Below are positions 2 through 40,530 of a stretch of DNA of 56,776 nucleotides, in pieces. Every line of letters begins with the position of its first letter. Position 1 is the first letter of the stretch. Both the position numbers and the translations under genes were made by a program. Source of the DNA: Escherichia phage Seurat; the sequence record NC_027378.1, one strand, 5' to 3'. The notes below the pieces were generated by a model. The model worked only from the letters and a program-made list of their open reading frames with translations. It had not been told where the DNA came from and did not search any database.

Positions 2-163
2 AAATATCCTTTGGTTTATACAAGGGACATTATCCAACGTTTGCAGGATACAGAAACAGCTCTGACTGAATGTAAACTGAGGGTTAAGGAAATCATACGC
101 TATGAAGCTGAAAATGTTTCGCTTGATTTTGTAGGATCAAGCAATTATATTCAGCCTAAATAG
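2..163 (+). CDS. 5'-truncated ORF entering from the window start; candidate C-terminal part of the o-spanin if the genome is circular/permuted
   Basis: Open frame 2-160 with TAG at 161-163; frame is continuous with the ORF starting at 56634 across the junction 56776->1. Confidence 0.3.
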   Translation, partial: KYPLVYTRDIIQRLQDTETALTECKLRVKEIIRYEAENVSLDFVGSSNYIQPK

Positions 164-183
164 CAATAAGAAAGGGGGCTTCC

Positions 184-741
184 ATGAACGGGGCAAGTCA
201 AGAGCAATATGATCGTGACTGGACGAATTACATCCAGTATGCAAATAGCTTGTCCGCTGAAGAGATGGCAATACGTGACAAAGTTGTTGCTGAGTACATG
301 TTCGACTACAATTGGACTAACGCTTGCATGAGATGCGGGTTCAATGCTATGTTTGCACAGGAGCTTGGCCAACGCTTTGCCACGGACTGTTATGTTCGAT
401 GGAAGCTCAAGGAGATTGAAAGATCCCGTGTTCAACGTACTTCTGAGCAAGCTAACATTGAAGCAGACCTTGAGCGTCAGCATATCATTGAAGCATTAAA
501 ACGTGAAGCTCATTATACAGGACCGGGATCTTCTCAAGCTGCTAGAGTCGCCGCATTGGGCAAGCTTGCACAAATTTATGATTTGGATGCTCCCAAGAAG
601 GCTAAGATTGATGTTACTAACAGAGGTGGCGTAATGATAGTCCCTGCTGTAGCAAATATTGACGAATGGGAAAAAACTGCATCCGAGTCTCAACAACGAC
701 TAGTTAAAGAGACTGAAGATGGAGCTAAACCGACAACCTGA
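184..741 (+). CDS. terminase small subunit (putative)
   Basis: 185-aa ORF immediately upstream of and overlapping the large terminase; RBS AAGGGGG before the ATG; call is positional. Confidence 0.45.
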   Translation: MNGASQEQYDRDWTNYIQYANSLSAEEMAIRDKVVAEYMFDYNWTNACMRCGFNAMFAQELGQRFATDCYVRWKLKEIERSRVQRTSEQANIEADLERQHIIEALKREAHYTGPGSSQAARVAALGKLAQIYDLDAPKKAKIDVTNRGGVMIVPAVANIDEWEKTASESQQRLVKETEDGAKPTT

Positions 742-2278
742 TAACATGCCGCGAGTCGTCTGGAAACCACATCCAGGTTCACAGACACTCGCTCTATCCT
801 GCCCCGCTGATATTATCCTATACCACGGAACTCGCGGTCCTGGAAAAACGGACTGCCAGCTTATGCGTTTCCGTAAGAATGTTGGTGTAGGGTACGGTAA
901 ATTTTGGAAGGGTATTATATTCGACCGTGAATATAAAAACCTTGATGACCTTGTAACTAAATCCCAGCGTTGGTTTCCTGAATTTAAAGACGGGGCTAAA
1001 TTCCTTAGTTCTAAGTCTGATTATAAATGGGTTTGGCCTACTGGTGAAGAGCTACTGTTCCGCGTTGCTTGTAAAGAAAAGGATTACTGGTCTTATCACG
1101 GTCACGAATACCCATTTATCGGATGGAACGAATTGACAAAATATCCGGACGGGCGTTTGTTTGAAGCTATGATGTCCTGTAACCGTTCATCTTTCCTACC
1201 AGAAGATAACCCAATTATCAATCCAGATGGTACGGTTACATATTTACCGGATATCCCTCTTGAAGTGTTTGCTACCAGTAACCCGTTCGGTGCGGGGCAT
1301 AACTGGGTTAAGAAACGCTTCATTGACGCTGCACCGATGGGTAAAATACTCAGGAAGACTACGCGAGTGTTTAACCCGAGGACGCAGAAAGACGAAGATG
1401 TGGTTACGACGCAATGCCATATCTTTGGTTCGTACCGTGAAAACAAAAACCTAAGTCCAAAATATATTGCAGAACTTATGTCTATCACAGACCCGAACAA
1501 GCGTGCTGCATGGTTGGGCGGGAGCTGGGATATTACATCCGGTGGTATGTTCGATGATCTGTGGCGTAGCACTGTTCACAAAGTACGACCATTCCCGATT
1601 CCAGCGAGTTGGAAGATTACACGTTCTTTCGACTGGGGTTCTTCAAAACCGTTCTCTGTCGGTTGGTGGGCTATTAGTGATGGTTCGGATGTTGTGCGTG
1701 AAGATGGCACTACATTCTCCACGGTCCGCGGTGACCTGTTTAGGATTAACGAATGGTATGGGACCAACGGTAAAACAAACGAAGGTCTACATTTGCTGGA
1801 CTCAGAAATTGCAAGCGGTATACTGGAGCGGGAATTGGCCTGGGGTATACACGATCGTGTAGTTCCTGGTCCTGCGGATAACTCCATTTGGGATCTGGAG
1901 AACAATAACTCCACCGCTGCAACAATGGCGAAGAAAATTCGTCTTAACGGGAAGTTATACAACGGTATACATTGGAAGCGCAGTGATAAGTCTGCTGGGT
2001 CACGTAAACGAGGCTGGCAGAAAATGCGTGAGTTCCTTAAAGCTGCACTGCGGGAAGATGCGAACGGTAAACCTTTGCCCGGTCCGCGCGAGAATCCGGC
2101 AATGTACATTTTTGATAACTGCAACTATTTCTTTGAGCTGGTTCCAAGTCTACCTCGCGATGAAGTAGATCAGGACGACGTTGATACGGAATGTGAAGAC
2201 CATATGGGTGATGAAGTTCGTTATATGGTTCTGGATCAAGCTGTTTATACAGGTGTTGGCAAAACTATCGGTATTTAA
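719..2278 (+). CDS. terminase large subunit
   Basis: 519 aa; Walker A-like HGTRGPGKTD near the N-terminus; acidic nuclease-like C-terminal half; followed by the portal gene. Confidence 0.8.
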   Translation: MELNRQPDNMPRVVWKPHPGSQTLALSCPADIILYHGTRGPGKTDCQLMRFRKNVGVGYGKFWKGIIFDREYKNLDDLVTKSQRWFPEFKDGAKFLSSKSDYKWVWPTGEELLFRVACKEKDYWSYHGHEYPFIGWNELTKYPDGRLFEAMMSCNRSSFLPEDNPIINPDGTVTYLPDIPLEVFATSNPFGAGHNWVKKRFIDAAPMGKILRKTTRVFNPRTQKDEDVVTTQCHIFGSYRENKNLSPKYIAELMSITDPNKRAAWLGGSWDITSGGMFDDLWRSTVHKVRPFPIPASWKITRSFDWGSSKPFSVGWWAISDGSDVVREDGTTFSTVRGDLFRINEWYGTNGKTNEGLHLLDSEIASGILERELAWGIHDRVVPGPADNSIWDLENNNSTAATMAKKIRLNGKLYNGIHWKRSDKSAGSRKRGWQKMREFLKAALREDANGKPLPGPRENPAMYIFDNCNYFFELVPSLPRDEVDQDDVDTECEDHMGDEVRYMVLDQAVYTGVGKTIGI

Positions 2279-2289
2279 CTGGAGGGTAT

Positions 2290-3786
2290 ATGGGTATTGA
2301 TGCAACTCACCCGCTATACGACAAGTGGAAGAATGCATGGATTAAGTGCAACGACTGCTATGAGGGTGAAGATAAAATTAAGGAAGAAGGTGTTAAATAT
2401 CTACCGCCTTTAGCTTCCATGATTATTGATGGGATGAATAATCCTAATGATTTGGGCTTTCAACGTTGGCTCGCTTATCGTCTGCGTGCTAACTTCCCTG
2501 ACGATTATTCAAGTGCTGTTACAAACAATTTAGGTCTGCTGCACCAGAAGCCGCCTACAATCCAGCTTCCTCCTGAAATGGAGTACATGCGGGATCTGTG
2601 TACTGCGGACGGTGAAGACATTATTGCTCTGCTACGTCGCATCAACGAAATGCAGTTAAAAAATGGGCGTCTGGGCCTGCTACTGGACTTGCCTAAAGGT
2701 GAGGATGTAAATAACAGACCTTATATTAGCGTTTATGACGCTTTATCCATTATCAACTGGGATGATGGTAAAGATGAATTGGGCAATATCAACTTGAACA
2801 TGGTTGTTCTGGATGAAAGTGGTCCTGTACGTGTCAATCAGTTTGACTGGAAAGAAGAGAAGCGTTACCGCGTTCTACAATTAGGTCCAATGGACACAGA
2901 TGAAGTTGCAGGTGGGGCGATCTACTCCCAACATCTGTTTATTAACAATACCAATTATGATGAAGGGCAAATGATTGCTCCTTATTATAAAGGTAACACG
3001 CTGGACGAAATACCTTTCCAGTTTGTCAATACAACAGATATTACCCCAGCACCGGAAGCGCCGCCATTGTTGGGTCTTGCTAACATTTGTCTAAGCATGT
3101 ACCGAAGTGACGCGGATTACCGCCAAAGCTTGCATATGCAGGGTCAGGACACTTTAGTCGTTGTTGGTGGTACTGGGGAGAATGGGGATAAAGCCCCTCA
3201 ACGCATCGGCCCTGGCGCTGTCATTAACGTTGCTATTGGTGGTGACGCTAAATATGTAGGTGTTAGCGGTGACGGTTTGTCCGAGCAACGTCTCGCACTG
3301 GCAGCGGATAAGCAGGAAGCCCAAATTAAAGCCGGGCAAATGGTAAACAATACCAAGAGTACGCAGGAATCGGGCGAAGCCATGAAAACGCGTATTGCTG
3401 CGCGTACAGCTAGTCTGATTCGAATTGCGTATACTGGTGCGGCTGGTCTGGAAAACTTGCTGAAGGTTTGCGCTAAGTGGATGGGCGCTGATCCCGAGAA
3501 AGTTGTGGTTAAGCCTAATCTTGAATTCACCAAGAGCATGTTTAACGGTCAGGACTTTGTTCAAATTATTACTGCACGCAACCTTAAGGCTCCGATTAGC
3601 TTGCAGTCTATTCATGGTTGGCTTGTTGATCAGGGCTTAACCACACTAAGCTTTGAAGAAGAAATGGCAATTCTTGAAGAAGAGCTTAAGAAGTGGCCTT
3701 TGCCCGATGATGCTAAAGCTGATTTAAACGCAGAGCAGCAAGTAAGCAAAGATCCTAAGGAAGACGACGCTTCCGATAAAGAATAG
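2290..3786 (+). CDS. portal protein (putative)
   Basis: 498 aa directly after terminase; RBS GGAGGG; acidic C-terminus; size and position typical of portal. Confidence 0.65.
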   Translation: MGIDATHPLYDKWKNAWIKCNDCYEGEDKIKEEGVKYLPPLASMIIDGMNNPNDLGFQRWLAYRLRANFPDDYSSAVTNNLGLLHQKPPTIQLPPEMEYMRDLCTADGEDIIALLRRINEMQLKNGRLGLLLDLPKGEDVNNRPYISVYDALSIINWDDGKDELGNINLNMVVLDESGPVRVNQFDWKEEKRYRVLQLGPMDTDEVAGGAIYSQHLFINNTNYDEGQMIAPYYKGNTLDEIPFQFVNTTDITPAPEAPPLLGLANICLSMYRSDADYRQSLHMQGQDTLVVVGGTGENGDKAPQRIGPGAVINVAIGGDAKYVGVSGDGLSEQRLALAADKQEAQIKAGQMVNNTKSTQESGEAMKTRIAARTASLIRIAYTGAAGLENLLKVCAKWMGADPEKVVVKPNLEFTKSMFNGQDFVQIITARNLKAPISLQSIHGWLVDQGLTTLSFEEEMAILEEELKKWPLPDDAKADLNAEQQVSKDPKEDDASDKE

Positions 3787-32746: not shown

Positions 32747-34723
32747 TTAGAACGGAACGTAATCCGGATCATCTGCTTGCACAGGATTAACCACATTGTT
32801 CACTGTTATACCTTGCGTATTCTGCGAAACAATATCGTCCCAGCTTACATCATCGTTATAGCTCGGACCTTCGGTTGTTCCATCCTGCCCGTATACTTTA
32901 ACCTGAATAGCTTGGTCGTCCTGCGGAGCTTCAAACTTACCGAAACACGTACCATCATAATCATAGTTCAATATCTCAGGCCATTTCTTATTGGTATGAA
33001 CTTTGATGTATTTTGGTGTTTTAAGCATTGCAGCAACATCAAGAGCTTCTTCAATAGTTTGTGGTAAAGGTAAATGTGTCCTTTTCTTCCACCATGCGAC
33101 AGCTTTACGACCTGCCCAGTCCCCATGAAGCAGAGCTACCCATTCACTGAATATTTTACTACCGCAATAATAAGTCACCTTCATTGTTGGAGGTTTAGAG
33201 CTGTCATTGCGTTTAGTATGCTTTGCATAAGTAACATGCGTAACTTTGAAGTCTTCAACTACTGGAATATCCTGCTTGATCAGGGCTTCCGTACTTGCAG
33301 CTTTCTTGAGTTTGGTCTGGAACTTAAACTCATGACCGCAAAAGCCTTCTTTAACGTAATCCGTCCCGCGTAGCCTAAATCCTTTCAGATATAATTGTTG
33401 AACTTGTTCCTGTGTGACGCTGTCCATTGGGATTGGTGCGAAGCCACCGCAATAGCGAGCAGATGCATGATTATACGACCCACATACATCGCATTCTTTA
33501 ACCGGAGCAGTACCAGCACCTTTTTCGCCAGGTCGCTTGGGTTTAACAGGGTCGTTAATAGGGCCCAAACGGCGCGTATTACCGCTGAAATCCAGTACAA
33601 GGCAGTTCTGCTTGGGGCTTGCTGCAATAGCTTGTAAGCGCCCCTCCTGCGTGGAAAGATCAAACCCCTCCGCGTACACCGGACGCGTACCGCGACCCAG
33701 CATCTGGACCCATAGCACCGCCGATGCAGTGGGGCGGAGCATGATAATTAAGTCCAGCATTGGATGATCAAAACCTGTGGTTAAGACGTTATTGTTAGTT
33801 AATGCTCGAAATTCACCGCGCTTAAACTTCTCAATAATCTCGTCACGTTCTTTTGCATCAAGCTTAGAGTGAATACATCCACAGCTAATACCCATATCGT
33901 TCAGCATATCACACGCGTCTTTAGCGTGTTCAATACCAGAACAAAATATAAGCCAGCTTTGACGGTCTTCACCACATTCAATCGCTTCCTCAAGTGCGCG
34001 GAGTGTTGCGTCATCGCGGTTTACCGCACTTTGCAGCTCACTCTGGATAAACTCACCGCCGCGTTTACCTACCCCGTTGAGGTCCAGCTCCATCTTAGTA
34101 CGCTTTGGCACAACCGGAAGAAGATAACCTTGCTCCAGGAACCAGTTGAAGGCTTCCGGAGTAGTTGCATCAAACGTCACCTTATCAAATAACGCATCAT
34201 CGTCTTCGTTTTCCTTAACAATTGAACCATACCCCAGTCGATAAGGTGTAGCAGTAAGGCCGATGATTTTTAAGTAAGGGTTAACTTCACGCAAAGCTGC
34301 AAAGAACTTCTTATACATTGTTGCATCACGTGGACTAATAAGATGCGCTTCGTCCACAAAAATAAGATCAACTTTGCCGAACTTTTTCGGATGCTTAGCA
34401 ACGGACGCAACTCCTGCAAAGGTAATAAGATTGTAGACTTCTTTACGCTTCAAACCCGCGCTGTAAATACCTGCTGGCGCTTCGGGCCAGACTTTCATTA
34501 ATTTATCATAGTTTTGTGCAATTAACTCTTTGACGTGAGTTAACATCATTACGCGCTGGTTTGGATACCATTTGTAAAGCAGATCGAGGAACCCCGCGAT
34601 AACGAGCGATTTTCCTGTCCCTGTTGGTAACAGGATCAAAGGGTTCCCCGCGTTACCCTTTTCAGCATCAAAATAGCGGAATACGCTATAAACTGCTTCC
34701 TGTTGATAATCGCGGAGTTGCAT
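32747..34723 (-). CDS. SF2 DEAD/DEAH-box DNA helicase with C-terminal zinc-ribbon region
   Basis: LRDYQ; Walker A LLPTGTGKSLV; DEAH box IFVDEAHLIS; motif VI GRGTRP; CDVCGSYNHASARYCGG. Confidence 0.8.
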   Translation of the reverse strand: MQLRDYQQEAVYSVFRYFDAEKGNAGNPLILLPTGTGKSLVIAGFLDLLYKWYPNQRVMMLTHVKELIAQNYDKLMKVWPEAPAGIYSAGLKRKEVYNLITFAGVASVAKHPKKFGKVDLIFVDEAHLISPRDATMYKKFFAALREVNPYLKIIGLTATPYRLGYGSIVKENEDDDALFDKVTFDATTPEAFNWFLEQGYLLPVVPKRTKMELDLNGVGKRGGEFIQSELQSAVNRDDATLRALEEAIECGEDRQSWLIFCSGIEHAKDACDMLNDMGISCGCIHSKLDAKERDEIIEKFKRGEFRALTNNNVLTTGFDHPMLDLIIMLRPTASAVLWVQMLGRGTRPVYAEGFDLSTQEGRLQAIAASPKQNCLVLDFSGNTRRLGPINDPVKPKRPGEKGAGTAPVKECDVCGSYNHASARYCGGFAPIPMDSVTQEQVQQLYLKGFRLRGTDYVKEGFCGHEFKFQTKLKKAASTEALIKQDIPVVEDFKVTHVTYAKHTKRNDSSKPPTMKVTYYCGSKIFSEWVALLHGDWAGRKAVAWWKKRTHLPLPQTIEEALDVAAMLKTPKYIKVHTNKKWPEILNYDYDGTCFGKFEAPQDDQAIQVKVYGQDGTTEGPSYNDDVSWDDIVSQNTQGITVNNVVNPVQADDPDYVPF

Positions 34724-34724
34724 A

Positions 34725-35633
34725 TCAATCTTTCCCGTAATAATTAGCTACTTGATAGTTTTGACAACCAACTTTCTGTCCTTGCGTATCCACTGAGGCG
34801 GAATGGAAATTGCAATACCATGTTCCATCTTCTTTTGGCTCAAGGAATTGACATGTGCGGCAGTTTACTTCCGGCATAGTTTTACGCCAGCATAGTGAGG
34901 AGTGATCGCACCATTTACATTCGAAGAAAGTGGAATCTTTAAATGCGCGGTCCGGAATATCTGTAGCAATAGCAATCTGCACACCACGATCAATATACAT
35001 GTCCGCGGTAACAGGATCAAACGGAATAATTTCTGCGTAAACTTCATCGTCATTCTTGTTTACTGCAAGATATAACGCTGCGCCAAGACCTAGTTTTCGC
35101 ATGTACACGTTCATCTGTACATAGTGCTCAGGTTTAGCTTCTTTGACACCTTTAGCTTTCAGCTTTTTAAAAGACTTATCGTTATGCGTCTTCATTTCGG
35201 TAAGCACAGGCATCCCAGGCTGCACGTCCGGACAACCTATAACCACACCATCACAGGAACCGCCAAAGTGTCCGCCAGCTTCGCTGATACGGAACTGGTG
35301 TCCATTTTCGTCCTGCTGATAGACCTGCATACCTGCCGCAAGAAGCATAGCAATGAAACGCGCTTCTTCCAGATGTCCACGGTTAAACAGTCGAAGCTGG
35401 CGTCCGTCAAACTCTTTGCGTGTAGCCCAGCGATATCCATAGAAAAGCTTGCGTGCGCACTGTTGCCCAATAAGGGAAGCGCCTAAGTGACTGCGGTTAC
35501 CGCTTTCAGGGCGATAAGCGTCTTCAATTGTGGGAATGACTACGCCAAGATACTTACGGTAAGTCCCACCCTGATCTTTTTGCACACCGTCATTGATCGC
35601 TTGAAGTGTTTTTTCTGCAATATAAATAGCCAT
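34725..35633 (-). CDS. PD-(D/E)xK nuclease (Cas4/RecB-like exonuclease) with C-terminal Cys cluster
   Basis: D...EMK signature (SCDGVVIG...LTEMKTH); C-terminal CKWCDHSSLCW...CRTC...C. Confidence 0.55.
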   Translation of the reverse strand: MAIYIAEKTLQAINDGVQKDQGGTYRKYLGVVIPTIEDAYRPESGNRSHLGASLIGQQCARKLFYGYRWATRKEFDGRQLRLFNRGHLEEARFIAMLLAAGMQVYQQDENGHQFRISEAGGHFGGSCDGVVIGCPDVQPGMPVLTEMKTHNDKSFKKLKAKGVKEAKPEHYVQMNVYMRKLGLGAALYLAVNKNDDEVYAEIIPFDPVTADMYIDRGVQIAIATDIPDRAFKDSTFFECKWCDHSSLCWRKTMPEVNCRTCQFLEPKEDGTWYCNFHSASVDTQGQKVGCQNYQVANYYGKD

Positions 35634-35641
35634 TGGAATAC

Positions 35642-35672
35642 CTTAGAAAAATAAGCCGTCTTTCGACGGCTT
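35642..35672 (-). terminator. intrinsic terminator
   Basis: AAGCCGTC-gaaa-GACGGCTT followed by ATTTTTCT on the minus strand. Confidence 0.55.
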
Positions 35673-35698
35673 ATGGACACTACAGAGGGAGGGTTATC

Positions 35699-36580
35699 TT
35701 ACTGCTGCCACGGCGGGACTGCTGCTTGTGCTGGATGCGGTTCAGCTTGCTGCTGCGGCTGAGCTTGCTGCTGAGGCGCTGCTGCCTGACCCGGCTGTGC
35801 TACCTGCTGCGCCCACGGCTGCTGAGCTGCTTCCGGTGCTACTGGCTGTTGTACCGGAGCTTGCTGCACTGGCTGCTGTGGTGCTGCGTTTTGAGCAGGA
35901 TTATCCCACGGCTGCGGTGCTGCGTTCTGCCACGGTTGAGCTGCTGCGCCCTGCTGCGGTGCTGGTTGCTGCACAGGTTGCTGAACAGGCTGCTGTTGCT
36001 GTACCGGAGCTTGCTGCTGTACAGGTGCTTGCTGTTGCTGAGCAAACGGGTTAGCTGCTGGCTGCTGTGGCGCTGCGCCCGGGAAAGTTGGCTGCTGTGC
36101 TGGCGCACCTGCACCAAACGGGTTAGCTACTGCTGGAGCACCCATTGATGGAGCCTCTGCTGCTTTTTCTGCATATTTAACCGGATCGTTGATGTTAGCG
36201 TAACCGTTAGGCTCGTTGCTGTCTTCATAACCTTCCTGAGAACGAACTTTCAGACGCAGGTTCAGCGGAATGTTATGCAGCTGAGCAGGGGTATCCCAGC
36301 GAATTACACCAACCGCATGGGACAGAGCACCCAGTTGCTCGTAAGCGATGCGTACAGTATCTTCGTTGTCGTTAATGACGTTATAACGAGCAAAGATTTT
36401 ACGCCCTTTAGCAAAACCGTCAATGATGCTAAACGTTACCTGGATCGCCATACCGCCATTTTTGGTCGGTTTAAATTCAGATGCTTCAATTACTGCTTTA
36501 TACCAACCTTTCGGCAATGCGCCGTAAGAAGGTGCTTGATAGCTGCTCGCGTCAAAGTGGAAATTAGTTGGCATAGTCAT
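35699..36580 (-). CDS. putative ssDNA-binding protein with a Gln/Pro/Ala-rich disordered C-terminal tail
   Basis: Globular N-terminal about 150 aa, then about 140 aa of QQPVQQ/APQQ repeats; adjacent to the Sak4-like ATPase. Confidence 0.45.
   Translation of the reverse strand: MTMPTNFHFDASSYQAPSYGALPKGWYKAVIEASEFKPTKNGGMAIQVTFSIIDGFAKGRKIFARYNVINDNEDTVRIAYEQLGALSHAVGVIRWDTPAQLHNIPLNLRLKVRSQEGYEDSNEPNGYANINDPVKYAEKAAEAPSMGAPAVANPFGAGAPAQQPTFPGAAPQQPAANPFAQQQQAPVQQQAPVQQQQPVQQPVQQPAPQQGAAAQPWQNAAPQPWDNPAQNAAPQQPVQQAPVQQPVAPEAAQQPWAQQVAQPGQAAAPQQQAQPQQQAEPHPAQAAVPPWQQ
35700..36130. repeat. CAG/CTG-rich low-complexity coding repeat tract
   Basis: Repeated GCTGCTG/CTGCTGC units encoding the Q/P/A-rich tail; generates spurious ORFs in several frames. 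Confidence 0.7.
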
Positions 36581-37308
36581 TAGTTGATACCTTTCATTTT
36601 GTTGATAACAGAACCTAAGTGTGGGACTTCAACCGCATCTAAACGTCCCGAACGATCCTTAGCGATTGTATTAAAGTCCGGTTGAGTTTGCAAGTAACGA
36701 TATGAGTTACCTTGCTGATCTTTATTTACATTCAGACGAAATACCTCGTCGAAGAAATAAGGGAGCATTTGTCCCAATTTGGACCCAGGCATAGATGGAG
36801 CATACGCGGTAACACCGGAGACTTCATCTTTGTCTTTGCCCATTTTAGCAGACATATAAACATGTTTGCCAGGAATATCGCGAAATTTACGGATCAGATC
36901 TTGCATCTTTTCAAGCAAAGTACCATAAGCTTGACGAGGATCTTTTGTTCCTTTTTTCGCATTGTTTAAACATTGTTCAGCAATTTCGCTCAAGCTGTCA
37001 AGCGCAATAGAATCGAAATACTGCTGGTTAGCTGGAGTTACACACCACTGATAAGCAGCTTCAACGTCCTCCAGACATTTAACTTCGATAACAGGAATGT
37101 CATAAACGATCGGCAATCCCATGTTACCATAAACACGATTAAGGTTTTCCGCTGCAATAGATAACAGACCGGACTCTGCGCTGATCAAAATTGGTTTAGG
37201 TAGTGTGGCTACAAGGCTGGTTTTACCCATACCCGCTTCACCGTAAACCAGAATTTTAACGCCTGTGTCTTGCACTACTTGTGAAGACATTTTAATTTCA
37301 ATGGCCAT
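36580..37308 (-). CDS. RecA-like core ATPase (Sak4-like recombination protein)
   Basis: Walker A VYGEAGMGKTSL; about 240 aa; adjacent to SSB-like and nuclease genes. Confidence 0.6.
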   Translation of the reverse strand: MAIEIKMSSQVVQDTGVKILVYGEAGMGKTSLVATLPKPILISAESGLLSIAAENLNRVYGNMGLPIVYDIPVIEVKCLEDVEAAYQWCVTPANQQYFDSIALDSLSEIAEQCLNNAKKGTKDPRQAYGTLLEKMQDLIRKFRDIPGKHVYMSAKMGKDKDEVSGVTAYAPSMPGSKLGQMLPYFFDEVFRLNVNKDQQGNSYRYLQTQPDFNTIAKDRSGRLDAVEVPHLGSVINKMKGIN

Positions 37309-37373: not shown

Positions 37374-38294
37374 TTAATCTAAAGCCTGATCAGTTTCATC
37401 GCGGAAATGCATAAAGTTAGCAAAACGCGGTTTATCTTTAACGCCATGAGGAAAGTGTTTATATGAAATAGTCCGACCTTTAATCTTGTCAGGGTTATTC
37501 CAATAATAAATCTTATCCTCTTGCGTTAATTTACCAGGACTAACGTTGATTGTATTGCCCGTCTTAACGTCTTTACAAACAAGCGTCCCGATCATACCGT
37601 TAGGAACTTTATTTTCCTGATGTGAAGATCGTGTAGTCCTTCCCAGCTCGTTAACAGTAGCTTCATTAAGATTAGTTTCACCCTCAATAATATCGAGGAC
37701 AATAGCGTCTTCCTGAATAAAGCGTTTAATACGAAGATATCCACCTTCTCGAACTGTACCGCGCCCATGCTTGTAAGGCTTGTTTGGATCACGGATAATA
37801 ATACCTTCATAACCCATATCAAGCCAGATGTTTTCCCAGTAGAGCAACTCTTCTAAAGACTTAACCACATACATCGGCACAACTTGCAGGTCGAGCAGTT
37901 CGCCTTTCGCGTGCTGTGTGGTTATAAAATCTTTCATCATGTTGTAGCGTGCTTCATAGCCCAGCTCTGCAACACTTTCCGCGCACAGATCAAAGATGTG
38001 CCATTTCAGGAACGGTTCGCCTTCAATTGTGTTTACCGCACTGGTTGTTTTACGGCACAGATCCGGGTCCGTTTCAACTCCTGCCGCAAGCTCACCATCA
38101 TAGCCCATGTACTGGGGACCGCTGAAAATTGCGCTTGTATGGCGGTTTTTAAACAGCTTTAAGCTGCGCCCTACTATTTGCCCATCCGGATTTAAACCGC
38201 GTACACCGTCGATTTTAGGCAGTATGCAGCACGGAAACTTAATCTTTTCTTCAACCGCGTCAGTTGCTAAATGTGGTTTAAATGCCATTTGCAC
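37374..38294 (-). CDS. ATP-dependent DNA ligase (minimal type)
   Basis: Nucleotidyltransferase motif I LPKIDGVRG, motif IV EGIIIR; 306 aa. Confidence 0.75.
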   Translation of the reverse strand: MQMAFKPHLATDAVEEKIKFPCCILPKIDGVRGLNPDGQIVGRSLKLFKNRHTSAIFSGPQYMGYDGELAAGVETDPDLCRKTTSAVNTIEGEPFLKWHIFDLCAESVAELGYEARYNMMKDFITTQHAKGELLDLQVVPMYVVKSLEELLYWENIWLDMGYEGIIIRDPNKPYKHGRGTVREGGYLRIKRFIQEDAIVLDIIEGETNLNEATVNELGRTTRSSHQENKVPNGMIGTLVCKDVKTGNTINVSPGKLTQEDKIYYWNNPDKIKGRTISYKHFPHGVKDKPRFANFMHFRDETDQALD

Positions 38295-39225: not shown

Positions 39226-40017
39226 TTACAGTTTGTCTTTGAACTCTTCGATATATTGCTCGATCGGATACTGCTTACGCTTGAAACGATCAAACAAGAT
39301 TTTAGCAGATTCTACGTCTTCGTCGCTCTCTTTACTTGCGCCCGGTGCCATAAAATCACGCCATGTAAAACCGTTCAGATTATGCATCTTAGCGATGTGC
39401 TTGTTGTAACGGCTTTCCCAGTCCACACGCGGACCTTCCATCGTGCGTAAACCGCGCCCAAGCACCTGTACATATAGATCTTTCTGACGTTGTACAGCTT
39501 CACCATTATAAGGTCCGGTTTTAAACTCAACAACACTACCGTTAAGATCTGCACCATCCGCAAAGTTGTGTAGCATAGTTTCAATAACGTCATTCAATGT
39601 TGGAACCGTCACTTTTCCCTGGGCAATACCTGCCAAATAACCGACGTTTTCTTCACCGTACAACTCGATCAGTTCTTTCTTGGTCGCTTCTGCTTCTTTG
39701 TTTGCGGACAAAGCCAACATCTGTTGTTCGAACATGTGTTCCTGTTCCAGGAAGTGAGCATAGCGCTCTTCGTCTACTTTGCACACAATCCATTTATATT
39801 CAACATCCTTGCTGAAGTCCGGATACTGATCTACTTCTACTACTTCCGTAGTAAAGAACTTGCCGTTATATTGAATAACAACTGTATCGCCCGGCTGCAA
39901 TTCGTCACTTTCCAGAGCACGGTATGTATAAAGACGACCACCCGCTTCAAACTTAACTTTGACAGTTACAACGCCTTTTAACAGAGCATGATAAGCTTTC
40001 TGAAATTCTTTACGCAT
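39226..40017 (-). CDS. hypothetical protein
   Basis: 263 aa. Confidence 0.45.
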   Translation of the reverse strand: MRKEFQKAYHALLKGVVTVKVKFEAGGRLYTYRALESDELQPGDTVVIQYNGKFFTTEVVEVDQYPDFSKDVEYKWIVCKVDEERYAHFLEQEHMFEQQMLALSANKEAEATKKELIELYGEENVGYLAGIAQGKVTVPTLNDVIETMLHNFADGADLNGSVVEFKTGPYNGEAVQRQKDLYVQVLGRGLRTMEGPRVDWESRYNKHIAKMHNLNGFTWRDFMAPGASKESDEDVESAKILFDRFKRKQYPIEQYIEEFKDKL

Positions 40018-40058: not shown

Positions 40059-40469
40059 TTAGGCTTTATTCGGCACAATTTCCAGAGACGCGGAACCAAC
40101 TTTCGATTCAACGCACTGGTTAAAGACTGCGGCTTGCTCCGCTGTAAGTTTACGCCAAGCCGCAACTTTCAACACAGGTTTATTTTCCACAAGCTGATCA
40201 ACGTTAACACCAACTTTAATCAGATCGCCCAGGATTCCGTTAAGGCTTGGAAGATCAATCTTGCGATCAATCTTGTGTGTCATTTTCATAACCCCGCCAG
40301 TAATTTCAACTTTATTAGTCCCTTCTGATGGAGCAGGGAAATAGGACTTAATAATCTTTTCGCGTAGTGCTCGCTCGCGAGCTTGAAGCTTTTGTAATTC
40401 TGCTTTGGTTTTATACCACTCAATGACATCTGCTTCGGTTGCTTGTACTGCTTTATCTGCGTCGAACAT
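40059..40469 (-). CDS. hypothetical protein
   Basis: Start reset to MFDADKAV... with RBS AGAGGA; about 136 aa. Confidence 0.45.
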   Translation of the reverse strand: MFDADKAVQATEADVIEWYKTKAELQKLQARERALREKIIKSYFPAPSEGTNKVEITGGVMKMTHKIDRKIDLPSLNGILGDLIKVGVNVDQLVENKPVLKVAAWRKLTAEQAAVFNQCVESKVGSASLEIVPNKA

Positions 40470-40493
40470 TTTTCTATCCTCTGTTGTGTTTCG

Positions 40494-40530
40494 ATGTATG
40501 TATAATAGCACATCCATGTGACAGGGCAAG
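40494..40530 (-). promoter_or_regulatory. sigma70-like promoter
   Basis: TTGCCC-N16-TATTAT on the minus strand about 30 nt upstream of the 40469 start. Confidence 0.35.

Follow-up and report, generated by a model that had tools for sequence, protein, structure and literature searches.

The genome of Escherichia phage Seurat (NC_027378.1), analysed here as a single window of 56,776 nucleotides (nt), contains on its minus strand, at 35699-36580, a gene whose product of 293 amino acids (aa) joins a folded N-terminal domain to a long tail rich in glutamine, alanine and proline. This gene probably encodes the phage's own SSB (single-stranded DNA-binding protein), a member of the DUF669 family with an oligonucleotide/oligosaccharide-binding (OB) fold, which would act together with a Sak4-like ATPase, an exonuclease and a helicase in the manner proposed below. 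SSB tails organise replication, repair and recombination through a near-universal acidic Pro-Phe tip that docks into basic pockets of many partners. The large phage family to which the Seurat protein belongs, comprising thousands of clusters at 50% identity, keeps the OB-linker-tip layout and swaps this tip for a neutral Pro-Pro-Trp. The identification of an SSB within a Sak4 module is of a known kind and well supported; the new element is the long neutral linker with its PPW tip and internal QPW motifs, together with the SSB-type acidic tip found on the neighbouring helicase.

The family assignment of the 293-aa protein follows from profile comparisons. The DUF669 model (PF05037) matches residues 8-131 at 52.6 bits (cutoff 21; E=6.7e-14) and also matches all 147 aligned homologues, and the PHROG profiles phrog_13350 (E=4.6e-138) and phrog_6015, annotated as SSB (E=4.5e-37), are matched as well. 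The N-terminal domain is confidently predicted to adopt an OB fold, a five-stranded barrel (strands 25-38, 44-52, 61-69, 106-113 and 121-129) with a helix (73-90) separating strands 3 and 4; a conserved N-terminal arm, nearly invariant at F9, A11 and P16, comes before the fold. The original prediction, made from the sequence alone, had staked the SSB-like character of the protein partly on such a fold, and on this point it survives. The nearest solved structure to the predicted domain is that of the single-stranded DNA (ssDNA)-binding protein PrgE, followed by bacterial SSBs. Searching the PDB by sequence, with either the protein or the family profile as query, recovered no structural relative, the sole match, the P/Q linker of ZipA, being compositional. 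An exhaustive search with the N-terminal domain retrieved 5346 family cluster representatives at E<=1e-3, and a word-indexed search retrieved two near-identical proteins only.

DUF669 has previously been predicted to be a diverged OB-fold SSB, linked by HHsearch to the SSB of phage N4 at 98% probability and present in phages without other SSBs (PMC4889955). A tblastn search with Escherichia coli SSB found no canonical SSB in the window, and none is present in the annotation of the related phage CAjan. The DUF669 protein is therefore the only SSB candidate in the phage, which implies a role in replication as well as in recombination, and we infer that it binds ssDNA from its fold, its gene context and the absence of another SSB gene. 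The 3.6 kb around the gene show 95-97% identity to over 30 Escherichia phages in the genus Seuratvirus (CAjan, Seurat-like phages and BASEL Bas21-25; subfamily Queuovirinae). In the CAjan RefSeq record the counterpart, gp50, is annotated as 'hypothetical protein ... DUF699 [sic] domain' and is flanked by gp51, a 'Sak4-like ssDNA annealing protein', and gp49, a 'Cas4-domain exonuclease'. Other GenBank homologues (e.g. in CSP1C, Greed and vB_VpaS_AL-2) carry the labels methyl-accepting chemotaxis protein, cell division protein FtsK or multimodular transpeptidase-transglycosylase, evidently because the low-complexity tail drew spurious matches through its composition.

The tail consists of 31.8% glutamine, 24.3% alanine and 20.9% proline (77% Q/A/P), compared with 3.4, 11.7 and 6.2% in the N-terminal domain, an enrichment far beyond chance. 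Within its 148 aa there is no lysine or arginine and there are three acidic residues, so that the tail is charge-neutral. The AlphaFold2 (AF2) model shows no secondary structure from residue 146 to the end, with a predicted local distance difference test score (pLDDT) of 46-65, in agreement with the disorder originally proposed and with the disordered linker of the bacterial-type SSB architecture. CAG accounts for 34 of the 47 glutamine codons, and the guanine-cytosine (GC) content of the tail is 63% (vs 46%). The earlier description of the tail as glutamine-rich repeats holds for its composition and is only partly apt for its structure, as Tandem Repeats Finder (TRF) reports four short imperfect arrays with a period of 12-24 and 2-3.4 copies. 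Slippage in this CAG-rich DNA, likewise proposed, is borne out in a limited way by the variation among ten Seuratvirus genes, which encode 287-295 aa: every insertion or deletion is in frame, the multi-residue events and one single-glutamine event all fall in the (A)PVQQ(Q) array around residues 183-205, and another one-residue event lies near residue 149. A metagenomic allele of 262 aa (P0001, on a 57.5-kb contig) carries a clean in-frame deletion of 31 aa that removes the whole PVQQ array and the third PF motif. A second near-identical metagenomic allele (P0002, 160 aa, on a 3.4-kb contig) ends after residue ~154 with an altered, frameshift-like C-terminus (...VANRSEERR).

The tail is maintained as protein-coding sequence. 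Distinct codon differences among the ten Seuratvirus genes amount to 65 synonymous and 17 nonsynonymous in the tail, compared with 53 and 10 in the folded domain, which indicates purifying selection on both parts, and the tail is in frame in at least 31 independently sequenced Seuratvirus phages and in hundreds of diverged homologues. That sequencing or assembly produced it as an artefact, a possibility which the original prediction had itself raised, or that it is low-complexity sequence drifting without function, is effectively refuted by these observations together with a motif conservation about 20-fold above chance (see below), even though the DNA is CAG-rich and length-variable and occasional records are truncated, such as P0002 and that of Pseudomonas phage NP1. 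In NP1 (KX129925; locus L003, 3535-3537) an in-frame TGA occurs at codon 182, within the tail; the frame runs on for ~100 more codons to ...TATPPWAQPQQ-stop, leaving a 360-nt unannotated 'gap', and the TGA could reflect a sequencing error, read-through or a nonsense mutation of recent date. Two plus-strand open reading frames (ORFs) antisense to the tail, at 35633-36148 (171 aa) and 35728-36054 (108 aa), were rejected as genes, their Leu/Ala/Cys/Arg-rich products being mirror images of the CAG/GCA-rich strand.

Seven aromatic residues are distributed along the tail, each preceded by proline or threonine (NPF, PTF, NPF, QPW, QPW, QPW and PPW), and all seven are invariant in the ten Seuratviruses. 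The protein terminates in the tip peptide EPHPAQAAVPPWQQ; its end, ...AAVPPWQQ, is not of the acidic D-D-D-I-P-F type, in which a hydrophobic end carries the free carboxylate. To place these motifs in the family, tail statistics were taken over the best 150 of the 5346 representatives, whose OB domains are 36-61% identical besides one 100%-identical self-match. Most of these proteins are 240-340 aa long, and long tails are therefore the rule. The tails, with a median of ~135 aa, consist of 25% alanine, 22% proline and 19% glutamine, are almost uncharged and can be aligned at their tryptophans only. PPW lies within the last 28 aa of 119 of the 150, against a mean of 5.9 and a maximum of 13 after tail shuffling, which is the ~20-fold excess mentioned above; the pattern P[PAS]W is found in the last 25 residues of 131, with another xPW in most of the remainder. 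Across the family the tip tryptophan stands 2-8 residues before the C-terminus in the consensus A-Q-x-A-[TV]-P-P-W-[AQM]-[QRK]-[PQ], with proline at position -1 in 90%, and the consensus of the internal PW sites (n=282), with glutamine at -1 in 74%, is unlike that of the tip. Homologous tails hold between one and seven PW motifs, the commonest number being two.

The persistence of the tip is most evident where the remainder of the tail has changed. The relatives P0004 and P0057 share HPAQAAVPPWQ with the Seurat protein, although the OB domains are just 61% identical and the tails otherwise differ, and the tip survives in tails of ~25 aa (P0092, ...TTPPWKRG; P0143; P0099). Distant DUF669 proteins from other genera also retain a PW tip, as in BcepGomr (...SVPPWLAGQQAA), PAC1 (...APWGQR), Shy (...PAWGQPR) and SE4 (...APWEE), and the motif is conserved across phages of Escherichia, Pseudomonas, Vibrio, Burkholderia and Rhizobium, the family reaching other hosts as well; the internal G-W-G motifs of these distant proteins resemble the sequence GGWGQPQQP in the linker of E. 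coli SSB. A classical acidic tip occurs in only two of the 150 representatives (P0030, ...DDVPPFE; P0119, ...DDDSDLPF). Among the 70 complete SSB genes of related loci, which were gathered with an eight-row alignment of the N-terminal domain, 61 encode PPW and none an acidic PF tip. As judged from these sequences, a large DUF669 branch has a neutral Trp-based tip, contrary to the generalisation that DUF669 tails are acidic (PMC4889955). The motifs are conserved while the Q/P/A spacer between them drifts, and their conservation would favour docking of a specific partner and/or the behaviour of aromatic 'stickers'. The proposal that the glutamine-rich tail may mediate protein interactions or condensate formation is upheld in part only: the glutamine repeats are its least conserved part, and the features that favour docking or sticker contacts are the conserved [TV]PPW and QPW motifs, which had been missed. 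For condensate formation the sole precedent is the linker of E. coli SSB, whose condensation is tuned by aromatic residues (PMC12143593).

The acidic tip that is absent from the SSB is present elsewhere in the module. The helicase encoded two genes downstream matches E. coli RadD (6jde) over residues 3-348 at E=7.3e-55 and ends in DDPDYVPF, which resembles the C-terminus of bacterial SSBs. Of 51 complete homologous helicases (loci L017-L095), 43 end in acidic-x-[ILVC]PF and 29 exactly in DDDIPF, the tip of E. coli SSB. In E. coli RadD, the arginines R21, R49 and R145 and a set of hydrophobic residues make up the pocket that receives the SSB tip (PMC10238739). In the phage helicase the hydrophobic residues and R145 (K/R; K in Seurat) are kept, while R21 is replaced by D19 and R49 by N55, and both positions are mostly non-basic across the 51 homologues; because two of the three pocket arginines are lost, binding of the helicase tip to its own RadD-type pocket in cis is uncertain. 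It is conceivable, and we propose it tentatively, that the acidic tip has been split from the SSB, with a neutral Trp code orthogonal to the host SSB network on the SSB and a host-type DDDIPF tip on the RadD-like helicase. Under such a split, the helicase tip would plug into, or compete for, proteins that dock host SSB, or would be read by Sak4, which reads NDYPPF in phage HK620. A stricter version, a reciprocal swap that would leave the SSB without an acidic tip only where the helicase has one, was rejected, since eight tip-less helicases still accompany PW-tipped SSBs.

The genes surrounding the SSB form a conserved module, whose features are collected in Table 1. The original prediction placed a Sak4-like ATPase with the Walker A sequence GEAGMGKT beside the 293-aa protein and a PD-(D/E)xK nuclease just downstream, and both are confirmed by minus-strand ORFs and profile matches. 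The 242-aa ATPase matches PF13479 (AAA_24) at 97.4 bits (cutoff 27) and phrog_124, 'Sak4-like ssDNA annealing protein', at E=1.7e-59, and its AF2 model (pLDDT ~90) has a RecA-like α/β core. It thus fits the definition of Sak4, a RecA-like ATPase reduced to its core, with a Walker A motif and without the RecA C-terminal domain; BLASTP similarity to HK620 Sak4 is confined to the P-loop, and AAA_24 matches both proteins. The 302-aa nuclease is assigned by profile match as a Cas4-like PD-(D/E)xK exonuclease, through phrog_1990 ('Cas4-domain exonuclease', E=5.7e-118), phrog_434 (RecE-like, E=1.6e-7) and phrog_1706; a Pfam search with it gave no match. The order (RNase H)-ligase-Sak4-SSB-Cas4 exonuclease-superfamily 2 (SF2) helicase is kept across 80 IMG/VR loci and four sequenced phages: a Sak4-class gene detected by profile lies directly upstream of the SSB gene in 73 of the 75 loci with enough upstream sequence, and the exonuclease gene is syntenic in nearly all. 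The Sak4-SSB-exonuclease module that had been proposed therefore stands on profile matches and gene order, and is wider than first described, extending from the ligase to the RadD-like helicase. It is of a type already described, since the Sak4-SSB pairs of HK620 and N4 and the DUF669 prediction have been published (PMC5928155, PMC4889955).

Table 1. Features of the SSB module in the window (phage Seurat, NC_027378.1).
Feature	Position	Strand	Basis
ATP-dependent DNA ligase, upstream neighbour of the module	37374..38294	-	phrog_114 E=2.8e-60; conserved synteny
Sak4-like RecA-core ATPase, 242 aa	36580..37308	-	PF13479, phrog_124
DUF669-family SSB-like protein, 293 aa (gene with stop)	35699..36580	-	PF05037, phrog_13350, phrog_6015
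Predicted OB-fold domain, residues 1-140	36161..36580	-	confident structure prediction
Disordered Gln/Ala/Pro-rich tail, residues 146-293	35702..36145	-	composition; AF2
Imperfect (A)PVQQ(Q) tandem array, ~residues 183-205	35966..36034	-	TRF arrays at 35964-36041
Three internal QPW motifs (W217, W225, W256)	35813..35938	-	fit family motif [AQ]-Q-P-W-[AQ]-Q-P
C-terminal tip AQAAVPPWQQ, residues 284-293	35702..35731	-	fits family tip consensus
Terminator-like hairpin (10-bp stem, GAAA loop, T-run) between SSB stop and exonuclease gene	35651..35674	-	
Cas4-like PD-(D/E)xK exonuclease, 302 aa	34725..35633	-	phrog_1990, phrog_434, synteny
RadD-like SF2 helicase, 658 aa	32747..34723	-	ResIII + Helicase_C domains; 6jde match
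Helicase C-terminal tip DDPDYVPF, SSB-Ct-like, ends Pro-Phe	32750..32773	-	only such tip in six-frame translation

Two Sak4 classes precede the SSB in these loci, one of 226-242 aa with the sequence VLVYGxAGxGKT, as in Seurat, and one of ~275 aa with IAGQEKMGKTT (L022-L044, L076-L087 and others), the latter found by profile only and not by phmmer; PW-tipped SSBs accompany both. As expected of a Sak4-cognate SSB, the Seurat gene is co-oriented with sak4 and overlaps it by 1 nt, the TAA stop of Sak4 and the ATG start of the SSB sharing a nucleotide in TAATG, which fits coupled synthesis of the two proteins. The terminator-like hairpin 3' of the SSB gene, whose counterpart in phage SA126VB is annotated as a rho-independent terminator, would fit SSB expression above that of the downstream genes.

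From these observations, the following mechanism can be proposed. The SSB would be made in a fixed proportion with Sak4 through the overlapping stop and start codons, and probably in excess over the genes beyond the terminator. Its OB domain would coat ssDNA at phage replication forks as well as the ssDNA that the Cas4-like exonuclease and the RadD-like helicase open up, and Sak4 would then anneal complementary strands on the coated DNA, as the Sak4/SSB pair of HK620 has been shown to do. The tail may be regarded as an enlarged bacterial SSB linker whose acidic tip has been replaced, its functional elements being the near-terminal [TV]PPW, the three internal QPW and the three P/T-F sites. These motifs may dock a partner (Sak4, a different protein of the phage replisome, or one from the host) and/or act as aromatic stickers, in which case cooperative, possibly condensate-like assembly could result. 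The Q/P/A spacer between them would be free to drift and to change length through repeat slippage. By analogy with HK620, Sak4 is the first candidate reader of the PPW tip.

Several observations weigh against this interpretation of the protein and its tail. The experimentally characterised SSBs of HK620 and N4 belong to a different PHROG, phrog_743, and the Pfam DUF669 model matches neither; BLASTP of the 293-aa protein against the two gives no match, and hhalign yields weak alignments of 70 colinear columns for HK620 (E=0.05) and 25 columns for N4 (E=0.003), which are not significant, and the Seurat protein was therefore not assigned to their family. The defining acidic SSB tip is missing, and the closest structure, PrgE, which is only 11-15% identical, binds double-stranded DNA (dsDNA) as well as it binds ssDNA and is not essential (PMC11137577). 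It could accordingly be argued that the protein is not a general SSB but an OB-fold accessory or mediator of the recombination module, or a PrgE-like binder of dsDNA and ssDNA, with host SSB covering the ssDNA; a helicase bearing a host-type SSB tip could also mean reliance on the host SSB interaction network. We consider this improbable, because bacterial SSBs are the next-best structural matches, because the gene lies among the replication genes of lytic phages that encode a polymerase, primase, helicase and ligase and no other SSB, and because the sister family of N4 and HK620 contains bona fide SSBs (PMC5928155). As for the tip, its pLDDT in the full-length model is only 59-65, and when Sak4 was fused through linkers to the C-terminal 28 aa of the SSB and 14 aa of the helicase and modelled by AF2 with a 35-row paired alignment, both tips scored 41-54 compared with ~90 for Sak4, giving no support for docking on Sak4. 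As counter-evidence this fusion is weak, since the HK620 contact needs ssDNA and ATP and the model contained a monomeric Sak4 with pLDDT as its sole readout.

How the tail acts can be explained in two further ways. It may be, although we would not put it above a serious minority possibility, that the tail is mainly a multivalent, low-specificity sticker-spacer polymer that promotes cooperative coating or phase-separated foci without a dedicated PPW partner, possibly mixing with host SSB, whose linker is similar in G/Q/P composition and contains W136 and F148. The spread of seven aromatics over a 148-aa uncharged Q/A/P spacer, the one to seven PW motifs of homologous tails and the GGWGQPQQP-like G-W-G motifs of distant members all agree with this, as does the finding that linker aromatics tune the condensation of E. 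coli SSB (PMC12143593; PMC7584906). Conversely, the flanks of the terminal motif (proline at -1 in 90%, threonine or valine at -2) differ from those of the internal ones, and PPW stays near the C-terminus and is kept in minimal tails, a pattern typical of a specific linear motif; the sticker and docking explanations are not mutually exclusive. It is unlikely, in our view, that the target of PPW and QPW is a host factor and not a protein of the phage. A precedent is N4, which carries the Sak4-SSB gene pair too and whose SSB is an activator of E. coli RNA polymerase at late promoters; retention of the motif in phages with many different hosts would agree with a host target that is universally conserved, and AF2 gives no support for Sak4 docking. 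However, the C-terminus of N4 SSB is basic and different and the protein belongs to another PHROG, no host protein is known to read PPW, and the strict co-occurrence of the motif with a fixed phage gene set fits a phage partner equally well.

The wider genome setting offers some additional observations. The module adjoins genes for 7-deazaguanine (preQ0) DNA modification, which lie at 69-3366 of locus L001, at 28848-31191 of L014 (CAjan) and in Seurat downstream of the helicase; the set comprises QueC/D/E-like proteins, a GTP cyclohydrolase, a tRNA-ribosyltransferase-like protein and a preQ0 transporter, and given this neighbourhood the SSB, Sak4 and helicase presumably act on modified DNA. 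Upstream in the same operon are a 263-aa protein (39226-40017, minus strand; phrog_27666) whose match to the 3'-DNA-binding domain of PriA is weak (E=0.007), and, at 40059-40529 on the same strand, a DUF7173 protein (E=4.6e-31). The GC skew of the genome reverses sign twice, around 21 kb and around 47 kb, in keeping with the change of coding strand between the structural genes and the replication/recombination block of the minus strand. Septimatrevirus and Lokivirus phages encode an extra Cys-rich protein of 171-175 aa (CxxC...CxxC, basic C-terminus) between the DUF669 SSB and the exonuclease, as in PAC1 (L099, 3308-3835, annotated as a second SSB) and Shy (L101, 3350-3865); the gene is absent from the Seurat sequence.

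If PPW is a true docking motif, it would constitute a new and easily testable peptide-protein interface and reveal the means by which phages keep their recombination and replication machinery separate from the host's. If the tip has indeed been divided between SSB and helicase, a second, previously undescribed SSB tail recognition system would exist alongside SSB-tip mimicry by a phage helicase; should the tail act through stickers, it would represent a natural 'amplified' E. coli SSB linker for condensation studies. Neither an SSB with a PPW tip nor a phage helicase with DDDIPF is mentioned in the searched literature, an absence that is not proof of novelty, and interest would rise with the demonstration of a specific PPW reader or of host-network mimicry by the helicase tip. 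Sak4/SSB pairs are also candidate recombineering tools, in which cognate tail-partner matching is known to limit portability, and the phages concerned (BASEL Bas21-25, CAjan) are obtainable and genetically tractable.

Among known systems, the closest in organisation are the Sak4/SSB (HkaK) pair of HK620 and gp44/gp45 of N4, where the gene for a non-canonical SSB likewise follows directly on a co-oriented Sak4 gene. Some 80% of sak4 genes have a distant ssb as neighbour, and in HK620 the SSB stimulates Sak4 and its tip is required to load Sak4 onto SSB-coated ssDNA, with a roughly 10-fold loss of function when the tip is deleted (PMC5928155). HK620 SSB also consists of a globular N-terminal part followed by a flexible tail with a Pro-Pro-aromatic end (NDYPPF, compared with VPPWQQ in Seurat). 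Its tail is short, however, and its acidic tip strictly C-terminal, with the free carboxylate on phenylalanine, whereas the Seurat tail is an uncharged stretch of ~150 aa in which the aromatic is tryptophan and two more residues follow (2-8 in the family). N4 SSB differs again in its basic C-terminus (...AAKSLFGKK). E. coli SSB shares with the Seurat protein the arrangement of an OB fold, a low-complexity Q/P/A(G)-rich linker with scattered aromatics and a short conserved tip, without detectable sequence similarity (hhalign E=0.19). Its G/Q/P-rich linker has 56 aa, in which W136, F148 and two arginines tune condensation (PMC12143593; PMC7584906); the Seurat tail is a counterpart ~2.5 times longer, free of arginine and bearing seven aromatics. 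Unlike E. coli SSB, the Seurat protein has four PW motifs and no acidic tip, the host-type tip being found on the helicase instead. That helicase is a clear homologue of E. coli RadD over the motor core, with the pocket hydrophobics conserved, and differs from it in carrying an SSB-Ct-like tip itself and in having non-basic residues at the R21 and R49 positions of the pocket. PrgE of plasmid pCF10 (PDB 8s4s/8s4t; PMC11137577) is the nearest in fold and is not retrieved by the sequence profile. It has no long C-terminal tail and is encoded in a conjugation operon. In phage T7, the SSB gp2.5 and the helicase-primase gp4 both have acidic C-terminal tails ending in phenylalanine. T7 and Seurat are therefore alike in that SSB and helicase each carry a short C-terminal recognition tail, by which replisome contacts are organised in T7 and might be in Seurat; the proteins are unrelated, and in Seurat the helicase tail alone is of the acidic, Phe-ending type, the SSB tail being neutral and Trp-based.

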